Source of the DNA: Halorhodospira halophila SL1
GTDB lineage: Bacteria > Pseudomonadota > Gammaproteobacteria > Nitrococcales > Halorhodospiraceae
Reading direction: 5' to 3'
Assembly (NCBI RefSeq): GCF_000015585.1
Contig: NC_008789.1
Span: forward strand, 1,860,001-1,892,000
DNA: 32,000 nt
Numbering within the stretch: the stretch's first letter is position 1; each line of letters begins with the position of its first letter. Both the position numbers and the translations under genes were made by a program. The notes beneath the pieces were generated by a model, which was not told the origin of the DNA, ran no database searches, and saw only the letters and a program-made list of their open reading frames with translations. Below are positions 14,079 through 30,523 of this stretch, piece by piece.

Positions 14079-15116
14079 TCAGATCAGCAGCATGGCATCG
14101 CCGTAGCTGAAGAAGCGGTACTCTTCGGCCACGGCGTGACGGTAGGCGGCCATGACCGATTCGTAGCCGCCGAAGGCGCTGACGAGCATCAGCAGCGTCG
14201 ACTCGGGCAGGTGGAAGTTGGTGAGCAGTCCGTCCACGGCCCGGAAACAGTACCCCGGAGTGATGAAGAGCCGCGTCTCGCCACTGTAAGGTGCCAGCTG
14301 GCCGTCCGCCGCGGCACTCTCCAGGGCCCGCACCACCGTAGTCCCCACGGCCACCACCCGGCCGCCGCGCTCTCGGGTAGCGTTGACAGCGGCCACCGTC
14401 TCGGCGCTGACCTCCAGCCACTCGGCGTGCATGGTGTGGGCACTCAGATCATCGCTCTCCACCGGGGCGAACGTCCCGGCACCCACGTGCAGCGTCACCC
14501 GAGCCGTCCCCACCCCGTCGGCGCGTAACCGCTCGAGCAGGGCGTCATCGAAGTGCAGCCCCGCCGTCGGCGCGGCGACGGCCCCCGGGCGGGCGGCGAA
14601 AACGGTCTGGTAGCGGGTGCGATCCTCGTCGTCGTCCGGCCGGCGGATATACGGCGGCAACGGCACGTGGCCGACCCGCTCCAGGTAGTCCCACAGGCTT
14701 TCGACCAGCCCAGCCAGCTGCAAACGGAAGAAGCGGCCCTCGCGCTCGAGCACCTCGGCCTGCACCCCGTCGGCCAACCCCAGCCGGCCGCCGGGCTTCG
14801 GGGTCCGGTTGGCACGCAGCTGACAAGTGATCAGCCCCGCGTCCGGATCTTCCACCCGCTCGATCAAAACCTCGACCCGCGCCCCGGTGGGCTTGGCCGC
14901 CTCGAGCCGGGCCGGGATCACACGTGTGTCGTTGAGGACCAGCAGGTCCCCGGCGCGCAGATAGGCCGGCAGGTCGGTGAAGCGCCGATCGGCCAGCGCC
15001 CCGCTATCGGTGCGCAGCACCAGCATCCGGCTAGCGGCGCGTTGCGCCGCCGGCCGATGGGCGATCAGCCGCTCGGGCAAGGCGTAGTCAAAGTCACTGC
15101 GGCGCCACTCGGTCAC
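14079..15116 (-). CDS. queA: S-adenosylmethionine:tRNA ribosyltransferase-isomerase (queuosine biosynthesis)
   Basis: 345 aa. Canonical QueA N-terminus [14 protein letters not shown], followed by [41 protein letters not shown] and [14 protein letters not shown]. Confidence 0.95.
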
Positions 15117-17134
15117 GATGACGGGCCACCCTCTGTCACCTTGAACTGCTGCACCAACTCCTGCAGGGCCTCGGCCTCACGCCGCAGCTGCTGGGCGGTC
15201 TGCGCGGCCTGGTTGACGCCGCCGCTGGTCTGCTGGGTGACCTGATTGACCGCATCCACATTCTGCGCGATCTCGGCGGCGACATTCGACTGTTGCTCGG
15301 CGGCCGTCGCGATGGACTGCACGTTCTCGGCGACGCTCTGTGCCTTCTCGACAATTCGTTGCAGGGCCGCCCCGGCGGCCTCGGCCTGCCCCAGACCGTC
15401 GTTGACCTGCCCGGAACTCTGCTGCATACCCTGCACGGCGGTGTCGGTGCGCTCCTGGATCTGCTGCAGCGCCTCGGACACCTGCTGTGTGGCATCCACC
15501 GTCCGCTGGGACAGGGAGCGTACTTCGTCGGCAACCACGGCGAAACCGCGCCCCTGCTCACCGGCACGGGCCGCCTCGATGGCAGCATTGAGAGCGAGCA
15601 GGTTGGTCTGTTCGGCGATGCCGTCGATCATCGAGATGATCTCGCCGATCTGCTCGCCACTGTGTCCAAGGGCGGTCACCGCCTCGCCGGCACGCTCGAC
15701 GCTGGCGGCGACCTCCTGCATCCGGGTCACCAGACCTTGGACCGTTTCTCGACCATCGGCGGCCGTCTCCCCGGCCTGCACCGCCGCACTAGCCGCCTCG
15801 CTGGTCTGGCGCGAGACATCGTGGATCGAACTCGACATCTCCTCGATGGCGCTGGAGACCTGCTGCGTCTGATCCGACTGCTCGGTCATGCCCGACTCGA
15901 TCTGGGCATTGCTAGCGGCAATCCGCGCAACGCCGTCGGTGACATCCCGGCTCGCCCCGGAGAGCTGCACGATCATGCCGTGGATCCGATCCATCAGGCG
16001 GTTGAACCAATAGCCAACGTCACCCAGTTCATCGGCCCGGCGCTCGTCGACCCGGCGGGTCAAGTCGCCCTCACCCTCGGCGATGTCGCGCAGGCCATGG
16101 ACCAGCTGGCCCAGCGGCTGGGTCAGTGATCGCGTGGTCCACGCCGCGATACCGAAGGCCAGGAGGCCGACCAGAAACAGCCCGATGCCCAGGGTCGCCC
16201 CGGCCTCGCGGACCACGCCGACGACCCCCTCACTGGCCCGCTCGCCATTCTCGGCGGTATGATTGGCCAGATCCACCACCGCCCCGAGGGCCTGCTCGCT
16301 GGTCTCGGCCCGCACATGGCGCAGCTCGGCCAGCGCCTCCTGCGCCTCGGCCAGTCCGGTGGCGTAATCCTGGTACTCGATAATCGCGTCGTTGATCTCC
16401 TCGAGGATCTGTTGCTCCTGCTCGTCAGCGGCGTTGGCGCGCAGGATACTGAAGTGCACCTGGACCTGCCCGAACCCCGGCAGGGCGCCCTGCAGCCGTA
16501 TCGGATCGCGGGTTTCCAGAGACTGCAGGGCGGCACGGTGGATGTCCCCGGTAACCACGCGGATCTCGTTCAGGCGCGAGAGATCCTGCAACCGGCGGGT
16601 GCGTACGTCGGCAGCGCTCTGCCCGGCGGGCGCCCGGAAATCCGCCGCCTGGGCGTCCTCGACCCGCTCACGCTGCTCATCCAGCAGGTACTGCGTCTCT
16701 TCCAGGGCGATGGTAGCTGAGCGCATCAGCCCGTCCCGCTCCTCCCGCAACCGCCCCACGGCATCCTCCGTGGCATCGGTGGCATCGCGGTAGGCCCCCA
16801 TGGCGGCCTCGGCGCGCTCGGCAAACTCGGCCATGCGCCCGTGACTGCCGGCTCGCACCTGCTCGATCTGCGCTACGGCCGCATCGTGGGCCTCTGCGGC
16901 CCGCTCCGCAGCCTCGGGTTGGTGGGTCAGACCGTACTCCTGCCAGCGCTCGGCGCTCTGCTGCACATATGCCTCGATCTGCCGTGCCGCCAGCAGCTCG
17001 GGCAACACCTCCTCGCGGAGCTCCGTAGCGTGGTCGTCAATGGTCCCCAACTGCCATACCGCCACGGCACCCAAAGCACCGGCCAGACCGATGACCAGAC
17101 CGAACCCCGTACCGAGCTTCCATCGGATGCGCAT
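15113..17134 (-). CDS. Methyl-accepting chemotaxis protein with a large helical periplasmic sensor, a HAMP domain and an MCP signalling domain
   Basis: TM1 is [18 protein letters not shown], followed by a helical ectodomain of about 300 aa and TM2 [21 protein letters not shown] follows, then the highly conserved [32 protein letters not shown]. The start is moved to ATG 17134 (GGGAGAG SD 6 nt upstream) from the track start 17179. Confidence 0.9.
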
Positions 17135-17308
17135 ACTGCTCTCCCTATCACCCCGCCGCGACCGCAGCGCCGCAGCCATGCCTCAGAACGCGCGATAAAC
17201 TACGCGACTGACTCCGTCATCACCAGTGGCGACCACCTGCGGCTTTCCTTGAGCTTGAAACACCGGCACCTGGCTAACGCGGCTCGGCGTGATACACTTG
17301 TGAGCCGT

Positions 17309-17394
17309 GCCGGGATGGCGGAACTGGTAGACGCGCTCGACTCAAAATCGAGTGGGCTTCGCCCATGTGGGTTCGAGTCCCACTCCCGGCACCA
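17309..17394 (+). tRNA. tRNA-Leu, anticodon CAA, type II with a long variable arm and encoded CCA
   Basis: Acceptor stem GCCGGGA pairs with TCCCGGC. Anticodon stem-loop is CTCGA-CTCAAAA-TCGAG. T arm is GTGGG-TTCGAGT-CCCAC. The variable arm is long (TGGGCTTCGCCCATG). The 3' end is ACCA. Confidence 0.9.
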
Positions 17395-17431
17395 TCTGTG
17401 ACCCTCCCTTGGATCCATCCGAGCCGGCGTA

Positions 17432-19735
17432 TCAGTGTGATTGCGGGGGCTTTTGTGTGCCCCGGATCAGCGCCTCGAAATCCTCGGCTTCGAGGGGGGC
17501 GCTCAGGAGGGAGCCCTGGATGCGTTGGCAGCCCTGCTCCTGCAACCAGGTCAACTGCCGCTGGGTCTCCACGCCCTCAGCTACAGTCCTCAGCCCCATC
17601 GCCTCGGCCACGGCGAGGCTGGCCCGGACGATCGCCTCGGCGTCCTCATCCTGACCCAGTCCAGCCACGAAGGATTGGTCGATCTTGAGTTCGGCCAGCG
17701 GGAGTTGCTTGAGGTTCACCAAGGAGGTGAAGCCAGTCCCGAAATCGTCGATGGCCAGGGCGATGCCACCCTCATGGAGCCGACGGATCTCCTCCGGGAC
17801 GACCCCGGCACGCTCAGAGAGCGTACCCTCCGCGAACTCCACCTGGAGCTGCTCGGCGGCAACGCCGTAGCGAGACAGGATCCGGAAGAGCCGCTTGGTC
17901 CAATGCCCCTGCCGAAAGCTCTTGGCCGAGACATTGAACGAGATGGGAGCAGGGGGCGCATGGCCTGCCGACCATGTATTCAGCTGTTCACACAATAGCT
18001 CCTCCACGCGTCGATCCAGCTCCAGGATCAGATCGGAACGCTCAGCAATGGGGATGAACCGCCCCGGACTGATCGGTCCGGATGCGGGGTCGTGCCAACG
18101 CAACAGGGCCTCCGCCCCCACCACCCGGCCGGGGTCGCTGGCGTCGAACTGGGGCTGATAGACGAGGCGCAGCTCACCTTGCGTGAGGGCCCGGCGCAGC
18201 GCCTCCTCCAGGGCAGTATCCTTAAGGAGACGCTGGTGCAACCCAGACTCGCACAGCCGCAGCCGGTTGCGGCCATCCTCCTTGGCCCGGTACATGGCCA
18301 TATCGGCCGCCTTGCACAGGGTGTGCACATCCTCACCATCGCGCGGATACAAGGCCAACCCGGCACTGGGCGTGGCCTGCAGCTCCCGGCCATCGACCAC
18401 GAAGGTACCACCGAGGCCCTCCACTAGGCGCTGCGCAATGGATCCAACCTCCTCGGGGTCGCAATCGGTGAGCACCACGGTGAACTCGTCGCCACCGATC
18501 CGCGCGACCGTATCCACATCCCGCACCAGTTCGCCCAGTCGCTCAGCCACCTGGACCAGGAGCTCATCCCCCACCTCGTGCCCGAGGGTGTCATTGATGG
18601 TTTTGAAGTGATCCAGATCCAGGAACATCAGACCCACTTGCCCCTCATGGCGCTGGGTCTGAGCAATAGCCTGCTGAAGCCGGTCCTGGAACAGGCTGCG
18701 GTTGGGCAACCCGGTCAGGGGGTCGTGGTTGGCCAGGTACTCGCTCCTGCTGTGGGCATCCTTAAGCTGAGTGATATCCGAAAAGACCGCCACGAAGTGC
18801 TGGGGCTGGCCCGTGGCGTCATCGATACGGTTGATGGTGAGCCACTCCGGGTAGAGCTCGCCGCCTTTGCGGCGGTGCCAGATCTCGCCTTGCCAGTAGC
18901 CTGAACGGTCCAGGCTCTCCTGCTTCTCCTTATGGAAGGCCTCGCTGTGCCGTCCGGAGTCGAGCAGGGCACACACGGTGTTGCCCAGGGCCTCTCCCTC
19001 GGTATACCCCGTGATTCGGGTAAAGGCGTTGTTAATGGTCTGGACGTGACCGTCTGGGTCCGTCACCACGATCGCGTCGCCGGCATCCTCGAACACGCGG
19101 GCGGCGATCCGAAGCTGCTCCTCCGAGCGCCGACGCTCCGTAATATCCATCAGGGCACATCGGAACCGGCAGGGGCTCCGATCGGCGGTGGGCTCCACCG
19201 AGCTCTCCATCCGCACCGCGCAGGAGGCTCCTTCCGCCCAGGCCAGGGTCAGTTCGACGGCCTGTGGGGCTCGAGCAGCAGTCAGAGCGCGCCAGTGCAG
19301 GTAGAGCGCATCCTGGGCATCCACCGCCACGAAATCAGAGAGGAGCTGGCCCGTCAGATCGCCCCCCGGGGCCAGGAGATCCGCGGCCGCCCGATTGGCC
19401 TCCCAGATCCGGCCCTCGTCGTCCAGCAGGAGATAACCCACCGGAGCCCGCTGGAACAGGTCGTGGTAGCGGTCTAGGGCGGTTTCCAGTCGGTCTCGAG
19501 CCTGCTGCAGCTCCTCGTTCTGGATCCTCAGCTCCTGCTGGTGCAGTTCCAGCTCCGCCACCAGGGACTGGGTATCCGCACGGCTCCAGTCGGAGACGTC
19601 CGTCACCCTCCGCTCCAGACGCCGACGCGCCGCTTCCCGCAGGGCCTCGGGTGAAAGGGTTCTCCGCTCGTCTTCGCCCATCAAAGGGGGTTCCTTTAAG
19701 GCCATCTCATTGTCAGGACTTCCGTTACGCGACAT
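17432..19735 (-). CDS. Coiled-coil / PAS-PAS / GGDEF / EAL c-di-GMP turnover protein
   Basis: 767 aa. The N-terminal coiled coil reads ELELHQQELRIQNEELQQARDRLE. Two PAS modules follow, then RIGGDEFTVVL (GGDEF), then EALLRW, IDDFGTGFTSLVNL, KIDQSFV and QGSLLSAP (EAL). The exact start among the first 19 codons is uncertain. Confidence 0.9.
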   Translation of the reverse strand: MSRNGSPDNEMALKEPPLMGEDERRTLSPEALREAARRRLERRVTDVSDWSRADTQSLVAELELHQQELRIQNEELQQARDRLETALDRYHDLFQRAPVGYLLLDDEGRIWEANRAAADLLAPGGDLTGQLLSDFVAVDAQDALYLHWRALTAARAPQAVELTLAWAEGASCAVRMESSVEPTADRSPCRFRCALMDITERRRSEEQLRIAARVFEDAGDAIVVTDPDGHVQTINNAFTRITGYTEGEALGNTVCALLDSGRHSEAFHKEKQESLDRSGYWQGEIWHRRKGGELYPEWLTINRIDDATGQPQHFVAVFSDITQLKDAHSRSEYLANHDPLTGLPNRSLFQDRLQQAIAQTQRHEGQVGLMFLDLDHFKTINDTLGHEVGDELLVQVAERLGELVRDVDTVARIGGDEFTVVLTDCDPEEVGSIAQRLVEGLGGTFVVDGRELQATPSAGLALYPRDGEDVHTLCKAADMAMYRAKEDGRNRLRLCESGLHQRLLKDTALEEALRRALTQGELRLVYQPQFDASDPGRVVGAEALLRWHDPASGPISPGRFIPIAERSDLILELDRRVEELLCEQLNTWSAGHAPPAPISFNVSAKSFRQGHWTKRLFRILSRYGVAAEQLQVEFAEGTLSERAGVVPEEIRRLHEGGIALAIDDFGTGFTSLVNLKQLPLAELKIDQSFVAGLGQDEDAEAIVRASLAVAEAMGLRTVAEGVETQRQLTWLQEQGCQRIQGSLLSAPLEAEDFEALIRGTQKPPQSH

Positions 19736-19789
19736 CCATGTCGAGCGGGATCAGAGCCACACTGTCTTTCGAGTCTAGGCGCCGGGTAC

Positions 19790-22360
<2,571 letters not shown>

Positions 22361-22462: not shown

Positions 22463-24874
22463 ATGAGCATGGCTGCACCCGAGCCCCTTTCACTGGAGCG
22501 CCTGTACCGGGTCTGTGATCCGGAGCAGCTCGGTTTTCGCACCACCGAGGAGCTGGCGGGCATGGACCGCCCACCCGGGCAGGAGCGGGCCTTGGAGGCG
22601 ATGGATCTGGGCGCGAACATGCGCGCCCCGGGCTTCAACCTCTTCGTCATGGGCCCGGAGGGCGACGGCAAGCTGGAGATGGTCCAGCGCCTACTGGCCG
22701 AACGCGCCGCTCGCGAGCCGACGCCCTCGGACTGGTGCTACCTGAACAACTTCGACGAGCCCACACAACCCCGCCTTCTGCGGCTACCCCCGGGCCAAGG
22801 GGCACGCTGGCGCCACGATCTGGAGCAGCTGATCGAGGAGCTGCGCAGCACCATCCCGGCCACCTTCGAGAGCGACGAGTACCAGAACCGGCTGCAGGAG
22901 CTGCAGCAGCAGCTCAACCGCCGCCAGCGTGAGGCCTTCGAGACCATCCAGAAGGAGGCCGAACAGTACGACGTCACCCTGCTGCAGACGCCCTCGGGAT
23001 TCAGCTTCGCCCCGGTGAAGGATGGCGAGGTGATCGAGCCGGAACAGTTCCAGCAGCTACCCGATGAGGAGCGCAAGCGCTACCAGGAGGCCATCGAGTT
23101 CCTGCAGGAACGACTGCAGTCCGTGGTGCAGCAGATCCCCAAGTGGCGCAAGGAGATCCAGCAGCAGGTCCGCAAGCTCAACGAGGAGATGACCCTGCTC
23201 GCGGTCGGTCAGCGCATCCAGGAGCTGCGCCAGCGCTACGGCGAGCTACCGGTGGCGGCGGCCCATCTGGACGCCATCCGCAACGACATCATCGAGCACG
23301 TGGACGCCTTCCGCTCCGGGGAGCAGGACCACGTGGAGTACATCCTCGGCCGCTACCGGGCCAATCTATTACTCGCCCACGATCCAGCCGACGGCGCCCC
23401 GGTGGTCTACGAGGACATGCCCACCCACCAGAGACTGGTGGGTCGAACGGAGCACCACGTCCATCAGGGCGCCCTGCTCACCGACTTCAATCTGATCCGC
23501 CCTGGCTCGCTGCATCAGGCCAATGGCGGTTACCTGGTCGTGGACGCCCACCGCATCCTCACCCAGCCACTGGCCTGGCCGTCGCTCAAGCGCACCTTGT
23601 CTGCCGGAGAGATCCGCATCGAATCCCTGGAGCAGGTCCACGGCTTCTGGACCACCGTCACCCTGGAGCCGGAGCCGATGCCGCTGCGTACCAAGGTGGT
23701 GCTGCTCGGCGACCGGATGGTCTACTACCTGCTCTCCGCCTACGACCCGGACTTCCCGGAACTGTTCAAGGTTGAGGCCGACCTGGAGGACGACCTCCCC
23801 CGGGACACCGAGACCCAGCAGCTCTACGCCCGCATGCTCGCCACCCTGGTTCGGCAGCGCCGTCTGCGCCACCTGGACCGCTTCGCCGTGGCGCGGGTGA
23901 TCGAGCACGGCAGCCGCATGGCCGATGACAGCGAGCGGCTGGCCGCCGGCGGGCGGGCCATCACCGATTTACTGCAGGAGGCGGATCACTACGCCACCGG
24001 CGACGGCGCCGAGATCATCGGCCAGGATCACATCGAGCGCGCCCTCGCCGCCCAAGAGCGCCGCGCCGGGCGCATCCGCGATCGCAGCCAGGAGACCATC
24101 GAGCGCGGCACCCTGGTGATCCACACCGAGGGGCACCACACCGCCTCGGTCAACGGGCTCTCGGTCCTGCAGCTGGGCGATTTCGGTTTCGGCCGTCCGA
24201 CACGGATCACCGCCACCGCCCGCCCCGGGCGCGGGCAGCTGGTGGATATCGAGCGCGAGGCCAAGCTCGGTGGCAAGATCCACTCCAAGGGGGTGATGAT
24301 CCTCTCGCGCTTTCTGGCCAGCCGCTTCGCCCCGGAGGGCGACCTGTCGCTGTCGGCAAGCCTCGCCTTCGAGCAATCCTACGGCGGAATCGACGGCGAC
24401 AGCGCGTCGGTGGCCGAGCTCTGTGCACTCTTCTCGGCCATCGGCCGCGTCCCACTGGATCACGGCATCGCCGTCACCGGCTCGCTGAACCAGCTTGGCG
24501 AGGTCCAGGCCGTGGGCGGGGTGAACGAGAAGATTGAGGGCTTCTTCGAGGTCTGTCGGCGGCGCGGGCTGACCGGGCAGCAGGGCGTGGCGCTGCCGGC
24601 AACCAACGTGCCGCATCTGATGCTGCGCCAGGAGGTGCGCGATGCGGTGGCCGCCGGGCAGTTCCACATTTACCCGCTGAGCCGCGTGGACGAGGCCCTG
24701 GAGCTGCTCACCGGTCTACCCGCCGGTGTCTGCGACGACGCCGGCGAGTACCCGCAGGGGTCGGTGAACCGCGCTGTCGCCGACCGCCTGGTGCAGTTCG
24801 CCAAGAGCCAGCGTCGCCGCGGCGACGGCGACGCCGGAGACACCCCGGACACCGCGGAGGATGACGATGACTGA
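22463..24874 (+). CDS. Lon-like protease (COG1067/LonC-like) with a helical insertion in the AAA module and a C-terminal Ser-Lys protease domain
   Basis: 803 aa. The N-terminus is CDPEQLGFRTTEEL...GQERALEAMDLG. The P-loop-like motif is FVMGPEGDGKLE. A coiled insertion spans roughly residues 130-290. Then come ANGGYLVVDAH, and the protease motifs GIDGDSASVAELCALFSA and VGGVNEKIEGFF. Confidence 0.85.
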   Translation: MSMAAPEPLSLERLYRVCDPEQLGFRTTEELAGMDRPPGQERALEAMDLGANMRAPGFNLFVMGPEGDGKLEMVQRLLAERAAREPTPSDWCYLNNFDEPTQPRLLRLPPGQGARWRHDLEQLIEELRSTIPATFESDEYQNRLQELQQQLNRRQREAFETIQKEAEQYDVTLLQTPSGFSFAPVKDGEVIEPEQFQQLPDEERKRYQEAIEFLQERLQSVVQQIPKWRKEIQQQVRKLNEEMTLLAVGQRIQELRQRYGELPVAAAHLDAIRNDIIEHVDAFRSGEQDHVEYILGRYRANLLLAHDPADGAPVVYEDMPTHQRLVGRTEHHVHQGALLTDFNLIRPGSLHQANGGYLVVDAHRILTQPLAWPSLKRTLSAGEIRIESLEQVHGFWTTVTLEPEPMPLRTKVVLLGDRMVYYLLSAYDPDFPELFKVEADLEDDLPRDTETQQLYARMLATLVRQRRLRHLDRFAVARVIEHGSRMADDSERLAAGGRAITDLLQEADHYATGDGAEIIGQDHIERALAAQERRAGRIRDRSQETIERGTLVIHTEGHHTASVNGLSVLQLGDFGFGRPTRITATARPGRGQLVDIEREAKLGGKIHSKGVMILSRFLASRFAPEGDLSLSASLAFEQSYGGIDGDSASVAELCALFSAIGRVPLDHGIAVTGSLNQLGEVQAVGGVNEKIEGFFEVCRRRGLTGQQGVALPATNVPHLMLRQEVRDAVAAGQFHIYPLSRVDEALELLTGLPAGVCDDAGEYPQGSVNRAVADRLVQFAKSQRRRGDGDAGDTPDTAEDDDD

Positions 24875-25712
24875 GCACACGCCGGAGCGGGGGACGCCGC
24901 GCCGGGTCGTGGTCCTGCTGGATGCCTCGCGCGCCAGCCTGGAGGCCCTCGAGGCCGCCGCCGAGATAGCGGCCCACCGTCGGGCCGAACTGCTGGCGAT
25001 CTTCGTCGAGGAGGAGGCCCTGCTGCGCTGCGCCGGATACCCCTGGGCCCGCGAGGTGGGCCTCTCCGGGGCCACCCGCCCCCTGGAGACCGACATCGAA
25101 GAGCAGCGCATGCGCACCCGCGCCGAGGAGATCCGCCGCGCCTTGGCGTACACCGGTCAGCGCCGGGGCGTGCACTACCGCCTGGAGGTCTGCCGGGGCG
25201 GGGTCGTCCGCGAGACCCTCAGTCTGGTCGACCGCGATGACCTGCTGATACTCGGCAAGGTGGGCTACGCCCGCGCCCGCGGGCTGCGCATCGGCTCCAC
25301 GGCCCGCGCCATCGTCTTCGGCACGCCGGGGCCGGTGATGGTCTTCGAGCGGCCAGTGCGGCCCCGGACGGGACACGGCGTGGCCGTGGTCGTCGAGCCC
25401 GGCGAGCCGGGCGTCGAGACGCTGACCCGTGCCGCCGCCCTGCTCGGCGAGAGTGAGACCCTGGCCCGGATCATCCCCGACCACACTGCCCCCTCACCCC
25501 CTGGCGACAACCCGACCCGCGCCTGGGCGGCCCGACACTGCCCCGACGCCCAGTGGCTGACGCCCGCCGGGTCGCCGACGGCCCTGGCCCGGCACCTCAG
25601 CCACGCCCCCGTGGACAAGCTGATCATCAGCCGCCGCAGCGCCCTGCTGGCCGAGCACAACACCCGCTCGCTGATCGAGACGGTGCAACTCCCGGTGCTG
25701 GTGGTGCCCTAG
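24861..25712 (+). CDS. Tandem universal-stress-protein (USP)-like protein
   Basis: 283 aa. The first half has a USP-like layout: VVVLLDASRASLEALEAAAEIA, then a G-x2-G-x9-G-S motif (GKVGYARARGLRIGST), then PVMVF. The second half is a degenerate repeat ending LPVLVVP. It overlaps the Lon-like gene by 14 nt. The family call rests on a weak motif match only. Confidence 0.55.
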   Translation: MTMTEHTPERGTPRRVVVLLDASRASLEALEAAAEIAAHRRAELLAIFVEEEALLRCAGYPWAREVGLSGATRPLETDIEEQRMRTRAEEIRRALAYTGQRRGVHYRLEVCRGGVVRETLSLVDRDDLLILGKVGYARARGLRIGSTARAIVFGTPGPVMVFERPVRPRTGHGVAVVVEPGEPGVETLTRAAALLGESETLARIIPDHTAPSPPGDNPTRAWAARHCPDAQWLTPAGSPTALARHLSHAPVDKLIISRRSALLAEHNTRSLIETVQLPVLVVP

Positions 25713-26497
25713 TCGCCGCCGCGCGGCCCCGGTGGCGCCGGTGCCCGGGCGGCCGCCTGGTACTCGTACTCGATCTCCGCCAGGCGGCGCTCGAACTCGG
25801 CGCGGAAGCCAGCCTCGACGCCCTCGATCTCCTGCTGCTTGGCGCGGCGGCAGCCGGCGATCAGGCCGCTGTCCACGGCGCGGGAGCCCGGCCGTACCGC
25901 CGGGAAGATCAGCACCCCGGTCAGCGCGTGCTCATCCAGCCAGGCCAGCTGGCGTAGCGCCTCGGGAACCAGCTCCGGGTCGGCCTCGGCGGCGGTGCTG
26001 CGGTGGAGCCACAGCACGCGACCGGGGCCACGCCCCTCGAATCCGAAGCGCCGGCGACCCGCCCCGCGCCCGCTATCGGCCTCCCGCAACCAGCGCGCGG
26101 CACTGCCCTCGGCAAGGACCTCGTCTACCTGACGGATCAGCCCCTGCGCTTCGTCCAGCGCCGTCGCGTAGGCCTCTAGATTGCGGTGGGCCACTGCCAC
26201 GCACGCGCCGGCGTAGCCCGCCCGGCGGCTGGCATCGAGGCGGCGGACCAGCGTGCCGATGAGATCCAGCCGACCACCGGGCTCGGGATCGGCGCCATCC
26301 TGGTAGCGCACCACGCGGCGGAAGACCACTTGCTCCTTGGCCGCCGGCAGCGCATGGTCGTCGCCGCCGCGGCCGCGGAACTCCACCGCCTGGGGGAACC
26401 CGGCCAGCCCCGCCAGGGCGCCACTACCGTGGACCGTCAAGCCGCGCACCGTGGCGAAGGCGCACCGACCGAGGATCGCCGGCGCCCCTTCGGTCAT
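25709..26497 (-). CDS. Hypothetical protein, third gene of the membrane/NTPase cassette; no recognisable family
   Basis: This is the last 262 codons (MTEGAPAILGRCAF...EIEYEYQAAARAPAPPGPRGGD) of the 574-aa track ORF 25709..27433. The upstream 312 codons of that ORF are the wrong frame of the NTPase gene. The ATG overlaps the NTPase stop (ATGA). Composition is protein-like, with an Arg/Gly-rich loop. Confidence 0.55.
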   Translation of the reverse strand: MTEGAPAILGRCAFATVRGLTVHGSGALAGLAGFPQAVEFRGRGGDDHALPAAKEQVVFRRVVRYQDGADPEPGGRLDLIGTLVRRLDASRRAGYAGACVAVAHRNLEAYATALDEAQGLIRQVDEVLAEGSAARWLREADSGRGAGRRRFGFEGRGPGRVLWLHRSTAAEADPELVPEALRQLAWLDEHALTGVLIFPAVRPGSRAVDSGLIAGCRRAKQQEIEGVEAGFRAEFERRLAEIEYEYQAAARAPAPPGPRGGD

Positions 26498-27549
26498 AGG
26501 CGCAGCCACTCCAGGATCCGCTGCCACCAGGTCGGCCCCATCCGCCCGCCGCCGAACTGGCCGTAGATCCAGGCGAAGATGTCGCGGATATCGTCGTAGT
26601 CCGGCTCCTGCAGACGCGGCCCGTGCTCGCCGTCGGCCACCGTGCCCAGATGCAGGGCCATGAGCTGCACCCGATCCTGGTGAGTCCAGCCGTCGAGGAT
26701 GCGGTAGGTGCGCGGCGCAAAGCGCTGCACGAAGGCCTCGCAGGCGTCGGCGCTGAGCTCCTCGTGACGGCGGTAGCGCTCGTCCCGCTCCTGCAGCCGC
26801 TGCAGGGCCTGTTCCGGCTTGGAGACCAGCACCGCCAGCGAAGTCCGCTCGCGCAGCGACGGGAAGTGCAGATCGAGGAAGGCGAGCAGGTTCTGGAAGA
26901 GGATGTCGTTCTCTTCGCCTTGCTCGGGATCGACCACCAGCACCAGGATCAACCGCAGCTGCTCGTTGGCGAAGTAGCGACTCAGGGTCTCGATCATGGC
27001 CGGGTCGCGCACCCGGTCGGCCACCACCTGGGTCATGAGCTCGCCGGAGGCCTCGAGGAAACTCAGATCCACCGGTTCGCCACCGCCCTGCAGCGGCCGA
27101 ACCCGGAAGCTCAGCTCGCGGATGTCGCCCTCGTCCACCGGGTTCGCCGGCGGGAAGCGCCCCTGCCCCCAAATGCGCATCCATTCGTTGAAGATGGCCA
27201 TCGGCTCCCAACCCTGGACGCTCTCCTCCGGGGTGATGAGCGGCTGGGCCTCGAAGGGGCCGATGTGGGTGACGTAGTAGGCCAGAAAGGACTGGAAAGT
27301 GGTCTTGCCGGACCCCGGGAAGCCGAAGGAGATCAGGTAATTGCCCTGGCGCTGGTCGATGTTGTCGTCGAGCAGCGCGCCGCGCTGCACCGGCTCCTCG
27401 TCGGCGGCCAGACGCTCCTCGGGGGACGGCCAAGGCGAAGGTGCCGGGGTGGGCCCCTCATCACCGGCCTCGGTGACGGGCTGCTCCTGCTCCGGTCGGC
27501 GCTCGTAATAGCGCCGCAACTGCCAGCGTGACTCCCTGGGTTCGACCAC
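26494..27549 (-). CDS. P-loop NTPase with GTPase-like G1/G3/G4/G5 motif order; family unassigned
   Basis: 351 aa. Walker A is ISFGFPGSGKTTF (about 27298..27324). Later motifs are DLSFLEASGE, LILVLVVDP, AVLVSKPE and LSADA. The N-terminal 70 aa are acidic and Pro-rich, and the tail is Trp-rich (GPTWWQRILEWLRL). A strong AAGGAGG SD lies 7 nt before the GTG start. Confidence 0.75.
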   Translation of the reverse strand: MVEPRESRWQLRRYYERRPEQEQPVTEAGDEGPTPAPSPWPSPEERLAADEEPVQRGALLDDNIDQRQGNYLISFGFPGSGKTTFQSFLAYYVTHIGPFEAQPLITPEESVQGWEPMAIFNEWMRIWGQGRFPPANPVDEGDIRELSFRVRPLQGGGEPVDLSFLEASGELMTQVVADRVRDPAMIETLSRYFANEQLRLILVLVVDPEQGEENDILFQNLLAFLDLHFPSLRERTSLAVLVSKPEQALQRLQERDERYRRHEELSADACEAFVQRFAPRTYRILDGWTHQDRVQLMALHLGTVADGEHGPRLQEPDYDDIRDIFAWIYGQFGGGRMGPTWWQRILEWLRL

Positions 27550-27567
27550 TGCTCCCCTCCTTGCCCG

Positions 27568-28668
27568 CTAGCGCGTGGCCACCCGATTACGGCCCCGCCC
27601 GGCTGCGCTGCCCCCCCGCGCGCCGGCCGCAGCCGGTGCAAAGATCAGCCAGGCGAAGAGCACCGGGGCCACATCGACGAACACGCCGAGGATCACCGAC
27701 ACCGCCGTCACCCCGGGATTGGGGCGATCCACAAAGCCGTCGCGCACACTGATGGGGATTTCACCGAGCTTGTCCAGGTCCGAGCGGATGACACGGTGCT
27801 GGACAACGGCCTCTTCGGGTAGGAGCACATTGGCGCGACGCTGCACCTCGCGCGAATGGGTACGCAGGTCGGCGATGATCTCGAAATCCCGATGCTCAAG
27901 CAGGGCACGATCACGCTGCTCCAGCTCCTCGGCCAGCGCCCGGTAGGGATCGTCGTAACGATCTAGAAGCCCATCGATCTGCCCGATCAGCTCTCGGGCC
28001 CGGTGGTACGCGGCGGGCACGACGCCGTTCTCGAAGTCGTTGATAACCGCCGCACGAAAGTGCTCATACCAGCGTTCGTTGGCCTCGTCGCCGGCGTCCG
28101 GCGACGGCACGGCGAGCTCTGTGGGCGTCCCACCAAGCTGGTCGTGGATCTCCTCGATATGCTCGCGGCAGCGCGCCCCGCAACCCGGGCGCAGCGGATC
28201 GTTGATCTGGGTGTCGAGGTTGTCGAGCGAGCGGGCCAATTCGCGCCGCTGTTCGGCCACCTGCTCGATGACCGGCGCATCGGCCAGTGCGTTGCGCGTC
28301 GCGGTAAGATCGTCGCGGAAGACCGAGAACTGGTCGCTGACCACGCGCTCGGCCATGTCGCGCTCCATGAAGTTGGTGTAGAGGAAGTTGTAGTTACTCG
28401 CGCCACTGAAAAAGGCAACGATGACAAAGAACGCCAGAGGCTTGAGCGGACTGCGCCCCTCGAGCCGAAAGCGGCGCAGCAGCATGTCGGTCCCGAACAG
28501 GAAGATGCCCAACAGGATGGCGAAGAAGATGGCCAGTTCCTGCAAGTGGCTATAGTAGCCGTAGTAAGAGAGGTAGACGCTGATCCCGACGCAGATGGCG
28601 GTCGCCACCACGTACATCAGGGTATAGAGACTGCGACCCGACATCGGCACGACCCGAACGGCGCTCAT
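27568..28668 (-). CDS. Polytopic membrane protein (3 N-terminal TM helices, a helical domain of about 220 aa, 1 C-terminal TM helix); first gene of the cassette
   Basis: 366 aa. TM helices lie at about residues 14-37, 42-63, 75-96 and 322-345. The cytoplasmic-type loop is RRFRLEGR and the tail is basic (GRGRNRVATR). The central helical domain carries a CGARC pair. Confidence 0.75.
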   Translation of the reverse strand: MSAVRVVPMSGRSLYTLMYVVATAICVGISVYLSYYGYYSHLQELAIFFAILLGIFLFGTDMLLRRFRLEGRSPLKPLAFFVIVAFFSGASNYNFLYTNFMERDMAERVVSDQFSVFRDDLTATRNALADAPVIEQVAEQRRELARSLDNLDTQINDPLRPGCGARCREHIEEIHDQLGGTPTELAVPSPDAGDEANERWYEHFRAAVINDFENGVVPAAYHRARELIGQIDGLLDRYDDPYRALAEELEQRDRALLEHRDFEIIADLRTHSREVQRRANVLLPEEAVVQHRVIRSDLDKLGEIPISVRDGFVDRPNPGVTAVSVILGVFVDVAPVLFAWLIFAPAAAGARGGSAAGRGRNRVATR

Positions 28669-28751: not shown

Positions 28752-30140
28752 CTACAGGCCGTAGATCAGGGAAGCGATGGCGAAGTAGTTCAGCACCCCG
28801 AGTACGTCGATCGCCGTGGTCACGAAGGGGCCCGTAGCCACGGCGGGATCGGCCTTCAACCGGACGAATAGCATGGGCAGCGAGACCGCCAGCAGCGCGG
28901 CACCGGTCATATTGGTCAGGATGGTGAGGCCGACGACCTGTCCGAGTTGAAGGCTGTCATACACCCAGAAGCCGTAGGCAGCCAGGATCACGCCGTAGAA
29001 GGCGCCCAGCAGCAGACCCACCCGTAGCTCCTTGAAGACCATAACCAAGGTATCGCGGGGGTTGATCGCCCCGGTAGCCAAACCGCGCACCGTCACGGTG
29101 GCCGACTGCACCCCGACATTGCCCGCCATGCCGATGATAATCGGGACGAAGGCACTGAGGATGATAACCTGGGCAAGCACCTCCTCGTACTGCCCGATGA
29201 CTGCGGTGGCACCGAGCCCACCGAGGAAGGCGGCGAACAACCACGGCAGCCGCACGCCGGCAATGCGGAACACCGAATCGGTCAGCATCTCCGACTGGCG
29301 AGTACCGGCCATGCGCAGCATGTCCTCGGTGGTCGATTCGCCGATCACATCGATGATGTCGTCAACGGTGATGATGCCGACCAGCACGTCGTTGTCGTCG
29401 ACCACGGGCAAAGCCAGTAGGCGATACTTGTCGAAGAGCCGGGAGACCTGCTCCTCCTCGGTGTCGGTGCGTACGCGGATCACCCGGCCGCTCATCACAT
29501 CTGCCACTTGAGCATCGCTCGGCGCGAGCAGGAGTTGACGCAGCGAGATGACGCCGGTCAGCCGCCCCTCCTCTCCGGTCAGGAACAGGTAGAAGACCAT
29601 CTCCGCGTCGGCGTAACCGCGCAGGGCCTCGATCGCCTCCTGCACCGTGCACGCCTCGGGCAACGAGAAAAACTCCGTAGTCATGATGCCGCCGGCGCTG
29701 CCCGGATCGTGGGCCAGCAGGGTATCGAGCTCGCTGCGACTTTCCGCATCCAGGGCGGACAGCGGATGGTCGCGCTGCTCATCGGGCAGAGCCTGGATCA
29801 GGTCGGTCAGGTCGTCCGGCCGGAAGTTTTCCAGCAACTCGGCCAGGTCCTTGTGCGGTAGCGCCTCAACGATCTGGTGCCGTATCGCCAGCGGCATCTT
29901 GTTGACGATCTGCGCAGCGTGGCGCAGATCGCTCACCGCCTGGAGCGTATCCACCACCTGCGGCACCGGCAGCTCGACCAGCACGGCGGCTGCATCGGCG
30001 GCGTGCAGACGGCGGATCAGTCGTTCCAGGGGGCGCCAGGATCCGCGCAGGTAGAGTTTGGTGAAGGTCTCGACCAAGCGGCGTTTGCGTTCATCGTAGA
30101 CGCCTGGGTCCGCCGGAGCGGCAGCTAAATCGATTTGCAC
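28752..30140 (-). CDS. mgtE: MgtE-family magnesium transporter
   Basis: MgtE N-domain motifs LHAADAAAVLVELP and RPDDLTDLIQALPDEQR. Tandem CBS domains follow GGIMTTEFFSLP. The C-terminal TM domain contains IIGMAGNVGVQSATV and ATGPFVTTAIDVLG. I place the start at GTG 30140 (463 aa). The track start 30326 adds 62 Arg-rich, non-protein-like codons that overlap the upstream gene. Confidence 0.9.
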   Translation of the reverse strand: MQIDLAAAPADPGVYDERKRRLVETFTKLYLRGSWRPLERLIRRLHAADAAAVLVELPVPQVVDTLQAVSDLRHAAQIVNKMPLAIRHQIVEALPHKDLAELLENFRPDDLTDLIQALPDEQRDHPLSALDAESRSELDTLLAHDPGSAGGIMTTEFFSLPEACTVQEAIEALRGYADAEMVFYLFLTGEEGRLTGVISLRQLLLAPSDAQVADVMSGRVIRVRTDTEEEQVSRLFDKYRLLALPVVDDNDVLVGIITVDDIIDVIGESTTEDMLRMAGTRQSEMLTDSVFRIAGVRLPWLFAAFLGGLGATAVIGQYEEVLAQVIILSAFVPIIIGMAGNVGVQSATVTVRGLATGAINPRDTLVMVFKELRVGLLLGAFYGVILAAYGFWVYDSLQLGQVVGLTILTNMTGAALLAVSLPMLFVRLKADPAVATGPFVTTAIDVLGVLNYFAIASLIYGL

Positions 30141-30523
30141 GGCTTCCCCTGGGGCTCCAAATCCTCGAACATCGACCAGTAGGCGTAGGCGTCGAAGATG
30201 GCCACGATGCGTAGGATGCGCCCTTGCTCGACCTGCGCCCAGTGGGCCAGGTCGATCTGTTGCTTGTCGGAGAGTTGGATGCAGTAGCGCAGGAAGTGGC
30301 AGACATCGGGACCGTCTACAAAGCACTTGACCACCTGCCGCTGCTGGACAATCGACCCGCCGACCATGGCGTGATCCAGCAGGTCTTCGGCCCGAGTGTA
30401 GCTGGCGATGGGACTCTCGTAGCGAAACCCCTGCCCGGCGAGGCAGGCGCGCGCGGCCTCGTAATCCCGGTCCTCGAGGGCCTGCAGATAACGCTCGACC
30501 GTCGCCTTCGGGTCCGTGCCCAT
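30125..30523 (-). CDS. Small NTF2-like/SnoaL-like fold protein
   Basis: Reads MGTDPKATVERYLQALEDRDYEAARACLA...F.YESP, the usual opening of SnoaL/NTF2-like domains. ATG 30523 has a GGGAGAG SD 5 nt upstream (track start 30544). Its 3' end overlaps the mgtE start by 16 nt. Confidence 0.6.
   Translation of the reverse strand: MGTDPKATVERYLQALEDRDYEAARACLAGQGFRYESPIASYTRAEDLLDHAMVGGSIVQQRQVVKCFVDGPDVCHFLRYCIQLSDKQQIDLAHWAQVEQGRILRIVAIFDAYAYWSMFEDLEPQGKPCKSI

Follow-up and report, generated by a model that had tools for sequence, protein, structure and literature searches.

DO-GTPases have been described as a separate family of TRAFAC GTPases marked by a conserved Walker B glutamate (Kaur, Burroughs, Iyer and Aravind, eLife 2020, PMC7159879). 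In that study, DO-GTPase systems are presented as computationally predicted, threshold-setting conflict systems, in which the GTPase is accompanied by GAP1 encoded downstream, by a GASH or FNIII protein and by variable effectors, with transmembrane (TM) components in about two-thirds of them. GAP1 may also be fused to the GTPase; GASH belongs to the N1 type and FNIII repeats to the N2 type, and the downstream GAP1 of GAP1-N2 systems often carries a TM anchor at its C-terminus. The published versions are large, multi-gene and variable. Here we describe a three-gene locus with a single GTPase of this family, found in 32,000 nt of Halorhodospira halophila SL1 (NC_008789.1, assembly GCF_000015585.1, positions 1,860,001-1,892,000 of the forward strand). 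This whole stretch is referred to as the window, and all coordinates of the locus are positions within it. The three genes, g1, g2 and g3 (together the trio), lie on the minus strand at 25709-28668.

The trio products are exact matches to Hhal_1721 (g1), Hhal_1720 (g2) and Hhal_1719 (g3), all three of which are annotated as 'hypothetical protein'. It is very likely that they represent a conserved, mobile three-gene module with a DO-GTPase as its second member, and the trio is probably a minimal variant of the DO-GTPase-centred conflict systems of Kaur et al. Sequence features mark g1 as a membrane protein, and the same holds for g3 in most lineages. We give an even chance to the reading that the trio works as a compact, membrane-embedded, GTPase-gated conflict system with its output at the membrane.

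Assignment of gene 2 to the DO-GTPase family

By its sequence, g2 is a P-loop protein belonging to the DO-GTPase family with an intact Walker A motif and the characteristic Walker B glutamate. Walker A reads FGFPGSGKTTF (G76-x4-G81-K82-T83), and G76, G81 and K82 are invariant in 30/30 sequences. Walker B takes the form hhhE166-x-S-G169-E170, with glutamate at position 166 in 27 of the 30 and aspartate in the three most distant. The elements conserved across the 30 superfamily sequences are GxxxxGK[ST], E145, [E/D]166-x-x-G-E170, D215 and [S/A]-K244-x-[D/E]. The last of these, a G4-like motif, resembles the NKxD guanine-specificity motif and reads SKPE (S-K244-P-E) in the window, as compared with AKWD or SKAD in distant members.

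Family assignment was based on the Pfam models PF19975 (DO-GTPase1) and PF19993 (DO-GTPase2), for which the gathering cut-off is 27 bits. The window g2 scored 23.5 bits with DO-GTPase2 and 21.6 bits with DO-GTPase1, and DO-GTPase1 was matched by 18/18 aligned close homologues, none better than E 2.8e-6. Distant GTPases in the same g1-g2-g3 arrangement passed the cut-off, three of them with DO-GTPase1 (L045, 36.8 bits; L053, 41.6 bits; L039, 27.2 bits) and one with DO-GTPase2 (L057, 29.3 bits). The DO-GTPase models were the sole family matches of g2 better than E 0.001, and when a g2 profile was compared with PDB sequences, only the P-loop region of SRP/FtsY and G-alpha was matched. Residues 1 to about 65 are variable and acidic/Pro-rich, and the Trp-rich C-terminus (GPTWWQRILEWL) is conserved. 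A GTPase-like P-loop NTPase with an acidic, Pro-rich N-terminus and a Trp-rich tail had been recognized in a preliminary description of the locus, made from the sequence alone, and this picture of g2 was borne out. The same description had placed none of the three products in a named family, which no longer applies to g2 but still stands for g1 and g3, neither of which has a Pfam match.

Conservation and transfer of the three genes as a unit

The host genome is GC-rich, and such genomes yield many long spurious open reading frames (ORFs). Homologues of each trio gene reach down to about 30% identity with the gene order constant, and g1, g2 and g3 are therefore taken as genuine genes rather than chance ORFs. 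The preliminary description had read this stretch as three packed minus-strand genes at 25709-28668, with an 18-nt gap containing AAGGAGG between g1 and g2 and an overlap (ATGA) of the g2 stop with the g3 start; the sequence agrees on each point, and the coupled trio was kept in every locus examined. The Shine-Dalgarno sequence AAGGAGG is at 27562-27556, 6 nt ahead of the g2 GTG start at 27549, and the overlap is made up of the g3 ATG (26497-26495) and the g2 TGA (26496-26494). The g1 stop codon, TAG, occupies 27570-27568, and the likely true start of g1 is Met9 at 28644, where the homologues and the original GenBank call begin, giving a protein of 358 aa. A promoter and terminator scan of the locus returned no sites. 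At the downstream end, the g3 stop TAG (25711-25709, minus strand) and the stop TAG of a convergent Usp gene (25710-25712, plus strand) share the palindrome CTAG. This tail-to-tail overlap of 4 nt therefore leaves no space for a terminator; judged by gene coordinates, it is also present in the relatives L006 and L007.

The g1-g2-g3 order was found in 24/24 non-redundant close loci, and a g2-like gene lies right after g1 in every distant metagenomic locus with room for one. In every locus with enough sequence the genes are on the same strand and tightly spaced (overlapping, or with gaps of up to about 50 nt), the g1-g2 spacing being 0-40 nt, or an overlap, across related loci. The neighbourhood survey that had been proposed as a check on the conservation of the trio has thereby been carried out, and the order was kept in all close and all assessable distant loci.

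Carriers are few and patchily distributed (21 of 185,579 species-representative genomes), and they span the Gamma- and Alphaproteobacteria together with one metagenome-assembled genome (MAG) each of Chloroflexi and Actinobacteria. They include Halorhodospira and other Ectothiorhodospiraceae, an Aquisalimonadaceae MAG, Thiohalocapsa marina and about a dozen Rhodobacterales, as well as one MAG each of Rhodopseudomonas, Anaerolinea and Microbacteriaceae. The GC content of the trio at third codon positions is far under that of the flanks in L018, L022, L027 and L029. For Thiohalocapsa marina DSM 19078 (L022, 6800-10400), the trio forms a low-GC island of about 3.5 kb with sharp bounds (0.45-0.50, as against 0.62-0.66 in the flanks). 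No convincing pairs of flanking direct or inverted repeats were seen around the low-GC trio islands. The three genes are inherited and transferred together as a unit. Two loci contain a trio gene split into two ORFs (g1 in L021, 6771-7864; g2 in L032, 7725-8907), which may be frameshifted pseudogenes or MAG assembly errors.

Predicted structure and relatives of gene 1

Alignment and an AlphaFold2 model gave the same order of elements for g1: a TM1-TM2 hairpin, a basic loop, TM3, about 215 aa of helical domain, TM4 and a short, basic tail with RVAT as its last residues. The model is all-helical (predicted local distance difference test (pLDDT) 80, predicted template modelling score (pTM) 0.66) and, with the alignment, agrees with the earlier outline of 3+1 TM helices flanking some 220 aa of helical domain. 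Strongly basic sequence makes up both the TM2-TM3 loop (RRFRLEGRSPLK) and the C-terminal tail. On this basis the large domain is put in the periplasm, in agreement with a CxxxC pair that it contains, and the N-terminus, the TM2-TM3 loop and the tail are predicted to be cytoplasmic. The same three features fit the periplasmic placement that had been derived from the positive-inside rule.

Invariant within the alignment are FSGASNxNxLYT, with which TM3 ends, DPxRPGCGxRCxxH, and D324 and P327 in TM4. Kept across the whole superfamily are the Ser/Thr/Gly motif of TM1, S-x3-N-x-N-x2-Y at the periplasmic end of TM3, the Q-x2-D-P-x2-P-G-x-G loop and the Asp within TM4. All members of the close subfamily keep the CxxxC pair and the His after it (DPLRPGCGxRCxxH), whereas distant relatives have other residues in place of the cysteines (DPxNPGxGxxA); a disulfide here, as yet putative, would thus be subfamily-specific, and the DP..PG.G loop is universal. 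An exhaustive HMMER search returned 296 clusters at 50% identity with E<=1e-3, 200 of them with E<=1e-10, so that the family is bigger than a word-index search had suggested.

No Pfam, NCBIfam or PADLOC family was found for g1 and 50 distant relatives, and a Foldseek comparison of the g1 model with the PDB gave nothing significant, the best TM-scores (0.25-0.30) being to the TorS sensor domain. Three further candidates were rejected. A pore-toxin fold (ClyA, PaxB) reached Foldseek probabilities of only about 0.1. An amphiphysin BAR domain match of the g1 profile (E 8e-4) was judged to reflect compositional bias of the helical domain, and the sole signal for a SLATT pore-forming effector was NCBIfam SLATT_4 on g1, which at 11.4 bits (E 0.22) fell far short of the 55-bit cut-off.

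In the metagenomic protein P0134 (1367 aa), a g1-like module with a shortened periplasmic domain occupies residues 879-1141 and is followed by a C-terminal TIR_2 domain (residues 1167-1284, E 1e-17), fused exactly at the predicted cytoplasmic tail of g1; the N-terminal ~880 residues contain several TM helices. Another metagenomic protein, P0077, is an apparent g1-g2 fusion.

Gene 3, the downstream partner

A homologue of g3 was detected directly after g2 in 24/24 non-redundant close loci using a local hidden Markov model (HMM). The sequence evolves fast, and a word-index search gave only six close relatives. Having been called an orphan on first inspection, g3 instead turned out to have a related gene at this position in all 24 loci, with a conserved N-terminal domain of about 200 aa (motifs GRAVFGTxRGLxAxGNGVLA and RDxxxRPGFxGACVAV). 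The window copy consists of this alpha/beta domain (residues 1 to about 205; GRxxFxTxRGL and RDxxxRxGYxGACVAV) and, after it, one long helix at the C-terminus. For 18 of the 24 close loci, the protein continues beyond the domain with a coiled coil, a single C-terminal TM helix and a variable tail, and in one subgroup a Cys pair is conserved in the tail, as expected of an extracytoplasmic segment. The TM helix and tail have been lost from the Halorhodospira clade, the window copy included. Third genes of the distant metagenomic loci encode 360-470 aa with one TM helix in the same architecture as g3, and comparison with the g3 N-terminal domain by hhalign (probability 62%, E 7.6e-5) suggests that they are homologous to it.

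An AlphaFold2 model of g3, built from an alignment of six sequences (pLDDT 74.5, pTM 0.73), shows an antiparallel sheet on helices and a long C-terminal helix. When it was compared with the PDB by Foldseek, the five best matches and the seventh were TagF (6iz8, 2qnu, 9t0n), at scores below significance (E 0.014-0.14, probability <=0.69, TM-score <=0.27). We treat this likeness of the model to TagF as a lead and not as a result. The third genes gave no TagF Pfam match, and no type VI secretion genes were present in any neighbourhood examined. A possible link between the folds of TagF and DENN/longin was dropped, the literature checked having given no support for it. Foldseek against BFVD found nothing among viral proteins, and the g3 profile returned just coiled-coil and TM noise (Wzc, DotF) from PDB sequences. 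Scans of g3 with Pfam, NCBIfam and PADLOC placed it in no family. A GAP1 domain was absent from all 12 third-gene products searched with E limits of 1 or 0.1, and no third gene had a Roadblock Pfam match.

Gene neighbourhoods

A census of 26 neighbourhoods was compiled, in which families were ranked by frequency and the 25 most frequent considered. No conserved fourth gene was found, the 150 neighbour proteins falling into 144 Pfam families. The commonest families were AbiEii (3), AbiEi (2), integrase (2) and SNase (2). Individual contexts included integrase, AlpA and GmrSD_C (L033); Dcm with Vsr; Dcm with a transposase; resolvase, DUF927 and rve; AbiEii, a DDE transposase and an MTase-HNH fusion; ParE with an SMC-like ATPase; an integrase; and a 902-aa PLD-like protein. 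Directly upstream of the trio in L035 (2429-4920) lie genes for a PG_binding_1 and Trypsin_2 protein and for a GYF_2 and DUF805 membrane protein. Combinations of GYF and trypsin are accessory parts of GAP1-N2 DO-GTPase systems (PMC7159879).

The features of the window considered here are collected in Table 1. In the window and in L006, L012 and L013 the order is GCS2, a small ORF, MgtE (in the window genome only), the trio and, on the opposite strand, Usp and a LonC-like protease. The last two look like an operon because of a 14-nt overlap at the Usp start, and as a pair they are syntenic with the trio in related Ectothiorhodospiraceae. MgtE is directly upstream of g1, 83 nt from the longer g1 start; since it is missing from the syntenic loci L006 and L013, where GCS2 and the small ORF abut g1, it looks like an insertion/deletion difference that separates close relatives. 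H. halochloris and H. abdelmalekii have the trio at another site, flanked by an RND efflux operon on one side and a DUF945 gene on the other. The DUF945 protein (485-529 aa; L002, 8262-9719; L017, 9858-11447) is encoded on the same strand after g3 and could be either a lineage-specific fourth component or a mere neighbour.

Table 1. Positions of the trio and of other features in the window.
Feature	Position	Strand	Description
g1 (Hhal_1721)	27568-28668	-	Predicted polytopic inner-membrane protein; 366 aa as listed ORF
g1-g2 spacer	27550-27567	-	18 nt; read directly from the sequence
g2 (Hhal_1720)	26494-27549	-	351 aa; predicted cytoplasmic, single-copy, divergent DO-GTPase
g3 (Hhal_1719)	25709-26497	-	262 aa; partner protein, truncated form
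LonC-like protease and tandem-type Usp	22463-25712	+	Protease of 803 aa (AAA_32, LonB_AAA-LID, LonC_helical, Lon_C); Usp of 283 aa
MgtE magnesium transporter	28752-30326	-	524-aa ORF, GTG start; real start probably further downstream
Signalling cluster	15113-22360	-	MCP (688 aa); PAS-GGDEF-EAL (767 aa); CheB/CheR/PAS fusion, unusual (856 aa)

Proposed mechanism and alternative explanations

We infer a defence function for the trio, for which the following mechanism is proposed. The g1 protein would act as a transmembrane sensor or scaffold whose large helical domain faces the periplasm, with an intramembrane polar cluster that may be formed by Ser/Thr of TM1, the Ser/Asn/Asn/Tyr of the TM3 end and the invariant Asp of TM4. 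Its short basic cytoplasmic tail would recruit the GTPase g2, a nucleotide-dependent switch or timer that would set the threshold of activation. The g3 protein would stand in for GAP1 as the constant downstream partner, its coiled coil and TM anchor coupling the switch to the membrane. Since the trio encodes no enzymatic effector, its output most likely takes place at the membrane itself and could be oligomerisation or permeabilisation, resembling abortive infection. In the P0134 fusion, TIR would occupy the end where g1 of the trio would meet the GTPase. The H. halophila module is an old chromosomal resident that has lost its g3 anchor, and its present role could have shifted.

Several observations weigh against a conflict system of this kind. 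There is no recognisable effector domain in the trio, and GAP1, GASH and FNIII are absent from it. All three proteins gave zero matches to PADLOC-DB v2.0 models at E<=1, the Pfam scores of the window g2 are sub-threshold, and no g1 or g2 relatives were found in viral-contig, phage and plasmid collections, two distant g2 queries included. The roles of g1 as sensor and g3 as effector are our inference, the structural likenesses (TorS, TagF) being non-significant, and no experimental work on DO-GTPase systems was found in the literature searched, in which the family was seen to be discussed only by the 2020 computational study and by one comparative-genomics study of PSP systems. About one-third of the neighbourhoods are purely housekeeping (L025, L029, L030, L032), and the Halorhodospira locus is stably syntenic beside Usp, LonC and MgtE and is not in a defence island. 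On the setting in variable or defence islands, which the preliminary description had suggested checking, the trio forms a low-GC island in several hosts, and AbiE, ParE, integrase, transposase or restriction-modification genes are frequent nearby.

The same stability of the Halorhodospira trio beside Usp, a LonC-like protease and MgtE, or beside an RND efflux operon, would suit signalling or remodelling in response to envelope or membrane stress, in which g1 would sense the periplasm or membrane and the GTPase and g3 would reorganise or protect the membrane in a Psp- or dynamin-like manner. Such a non-defence role is also consistent with the lack of an encoded enzymatic effector, with the membrane-bound or membrane-proximal nature of every component, and with many carriers (such as Halorhodospira and Thiohalocapsa) being, to judge by their genus names, halophiles or haloalkaliphiles. 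It is harder to reconcile with the extreme rarity and patchy phyletic pattern of the trio, a composition that points to transfer as a three-gene island, frequent toxin-antitoxin, restriction-modification, integrase and transposase neighbours, the TIR fusion of the g1 module and the apparent frameshifted copies in L021 and L032. A conserved link to Psp or envelope genes was likewise missing from the 26 neighbourhoods, among the 25 most frequent families, and we regard this role, the main alternative, as unlikely. The horizontal transfer and mobile-element context would also be unusual for an ion transporter, which bears on a FeoB-like alternative in which ions would cross a g1 oligomer along its conserved intramembrane Asp, Asn and Ser residues, with g2 as the gate. 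The invariant Asp of TM4 and the polar motif at the TM3 end, both kept superfamily-wide, would fit such a GTP-gated channel or transporter, and the trio adjoins MgtE in the window. However, the closest relatives, L006 and L013, have no MgtE at the syntenic locus; g1 has only four TM helices and no transporter likeness by Pfam or fold, and transporter or metal-homeostasis families do not recur among the 25 most frequent neighbour families. We consider a channel improbable.

Least probable of all, and very much so, is a polarity or developmental small-GTPase system of the MglA/MglB or conservon type, with which the trio has in common only the overall scheme in which a GTPase is combined with a membrane protein and an accessory protein. 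An antiparallel sheet on helices, as in the g3 model, is also seen in GTPase-regulatory platform domains, which would favour this assignment. On the other side, neither the trio nor its homologues gave a Roadblock/LC7, DUF742, histidine kinase (sensor-kinase/HATPase_c) or Ras/MglA match at E<=1, and no MglB/roadblock structure was among the top 50 Foldseek matches of g3. The only g2 matches better than E 0.001 were to models of DO-GTPases, which are a separate TRAFAC family (PMC7159879).

A broader version of the membrane-acting conflict system is possible, although we consider it rather doubtful. The trio and its superfamily of about 300 clusters would then be an unrecognised class of bacterial transmembrane GTPase signalling, a triad of receptor, G-protein and regulator with an abortive-infection output. 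The four-TM receptor, with its helical domain in the periplasm, would pass an envelope signal (such as phage adsorption, DNA injection or membrane damage) to the cytoplasmic DO-GTPase switch, the g3 N-terminal domain would regulate that switch, and the output would be membrane permeabilisation.

Novelty and significance

The trio is not categorically new, because both the GTPase family and the idea of GTPase-centred conflict have already been published. What is absent from the available text of the 2020 paper (PMC7159879) is the architecture itself, in which a single DO-GTPase is combined with members of the g1 and g3 families and GAP1, GASH and FNIII are missing. The carrier genera are not named in one supplementary text file of that paper. 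Pfam has no model for the g1 family, with its 50%-identity clusters numbering about 300, or for the N-terminal domain of g3, and neither has a significant match to a solved structure. As a three-gene, invariant, membrane-bound form of the DO-GTPase switch, the trio would be far easier to reconstitute and mutate. Should the triad of receptor, G-protein and regulator be real, the trio would be the first tractable three-gene way into the DO-GTPase family. An anti-phage or anti-plasmid function would add a new defence family that PADLOC misses and would show a GTPase linking an envelope-side sensor to a membrane output, and a function in envelope stress would represent a new kind of GTPase-dependent transmembrane signalling in bacteria.

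Comparison with known systems

With MglA/MglB and the conservon CvnA-D, the trio has in common a small NTPase and a dedicated accessory protein, to which the conservon also adds a membrane sensor. The conservon consists of four genes (sensor kinase CvnA, Roadblock CvnB, DUF742 CvnC and GTPase CvnD) rather than three, and both systems are distributed lineage-wide, whereas the trio is rare and horizontally transferred. The GTPase also comes from another family, g2 having no Ras-like, MglA or CvnD match. The analogies to MglA/MglB and the conservon drawn in the preliminary description fail as statements of membership, given the absence of Roadblock/LC7, DUF742, sensor-kinase and Ras-like matches (E<=1); its other analogy, to conflict or defence systems, is the better supported of the two. 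The accompanying remark that the architecture matches no named defence system was followed up with PADLOC, and the result of zero matches agrees with it.

Kiwa (KwaAB) and Zorya (ZorAB and further genes) also encode a polytopic membrane protein first in a small operon, followed by cytoplasmic partners, in a self-contained mobile cassette, and the intramembrane acidic residue of g1 recalls stator-like ZorB/MotB. The trio differs from both in lacking a PADLOC match and in the position of the large g1 domain, which is predicted to be periplasmic rather than cytoplasmic; its cytoplasmic part is a GTPase and not a nuclease or DUF4868-type protein. TagF, an accessory repressor of type VI secretion, provided the best, non-significant, fold matches of g3, whereas the trio has no type VI secretion context. 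TIR immune proteins are approached by the relative P0134, in which TIR_2 is joined to a g1-like module; the window trio contains no TIR domain. This fusion, seen in a single metagenomic protein, suggests that the cytoplasmic end of a g1-like module can serve to drive an effector of immune type.

The closest resemblance is to the DO-GTPase/GAP1 systems. The GTPase family is the same, a partner gene follows immediately downstream, often with a C-terminal TM helix and extracytoplasmic sequence, and in both cases the systems are membrane-proximal and mobile with a sporadic phyletic pattern; one relative of the trio (L035) also shares the trypsin and GYF accessory genes. The trio departs from these systems in having no GAP1-N, -M or -C, GASH, FNIII, Zn-ribbons or second GTPase paralogue and no variable array of enzymatic effectors, and GASH and FNIII were also absent from about 200 neighbour proteins scanned or Pfam-preannotated (for the census part, among the 25 most frequent families). 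In their place it adds an invariant upstream four-TM protein, g1, from a family without a Pfam model, and is complete with three genes in total.

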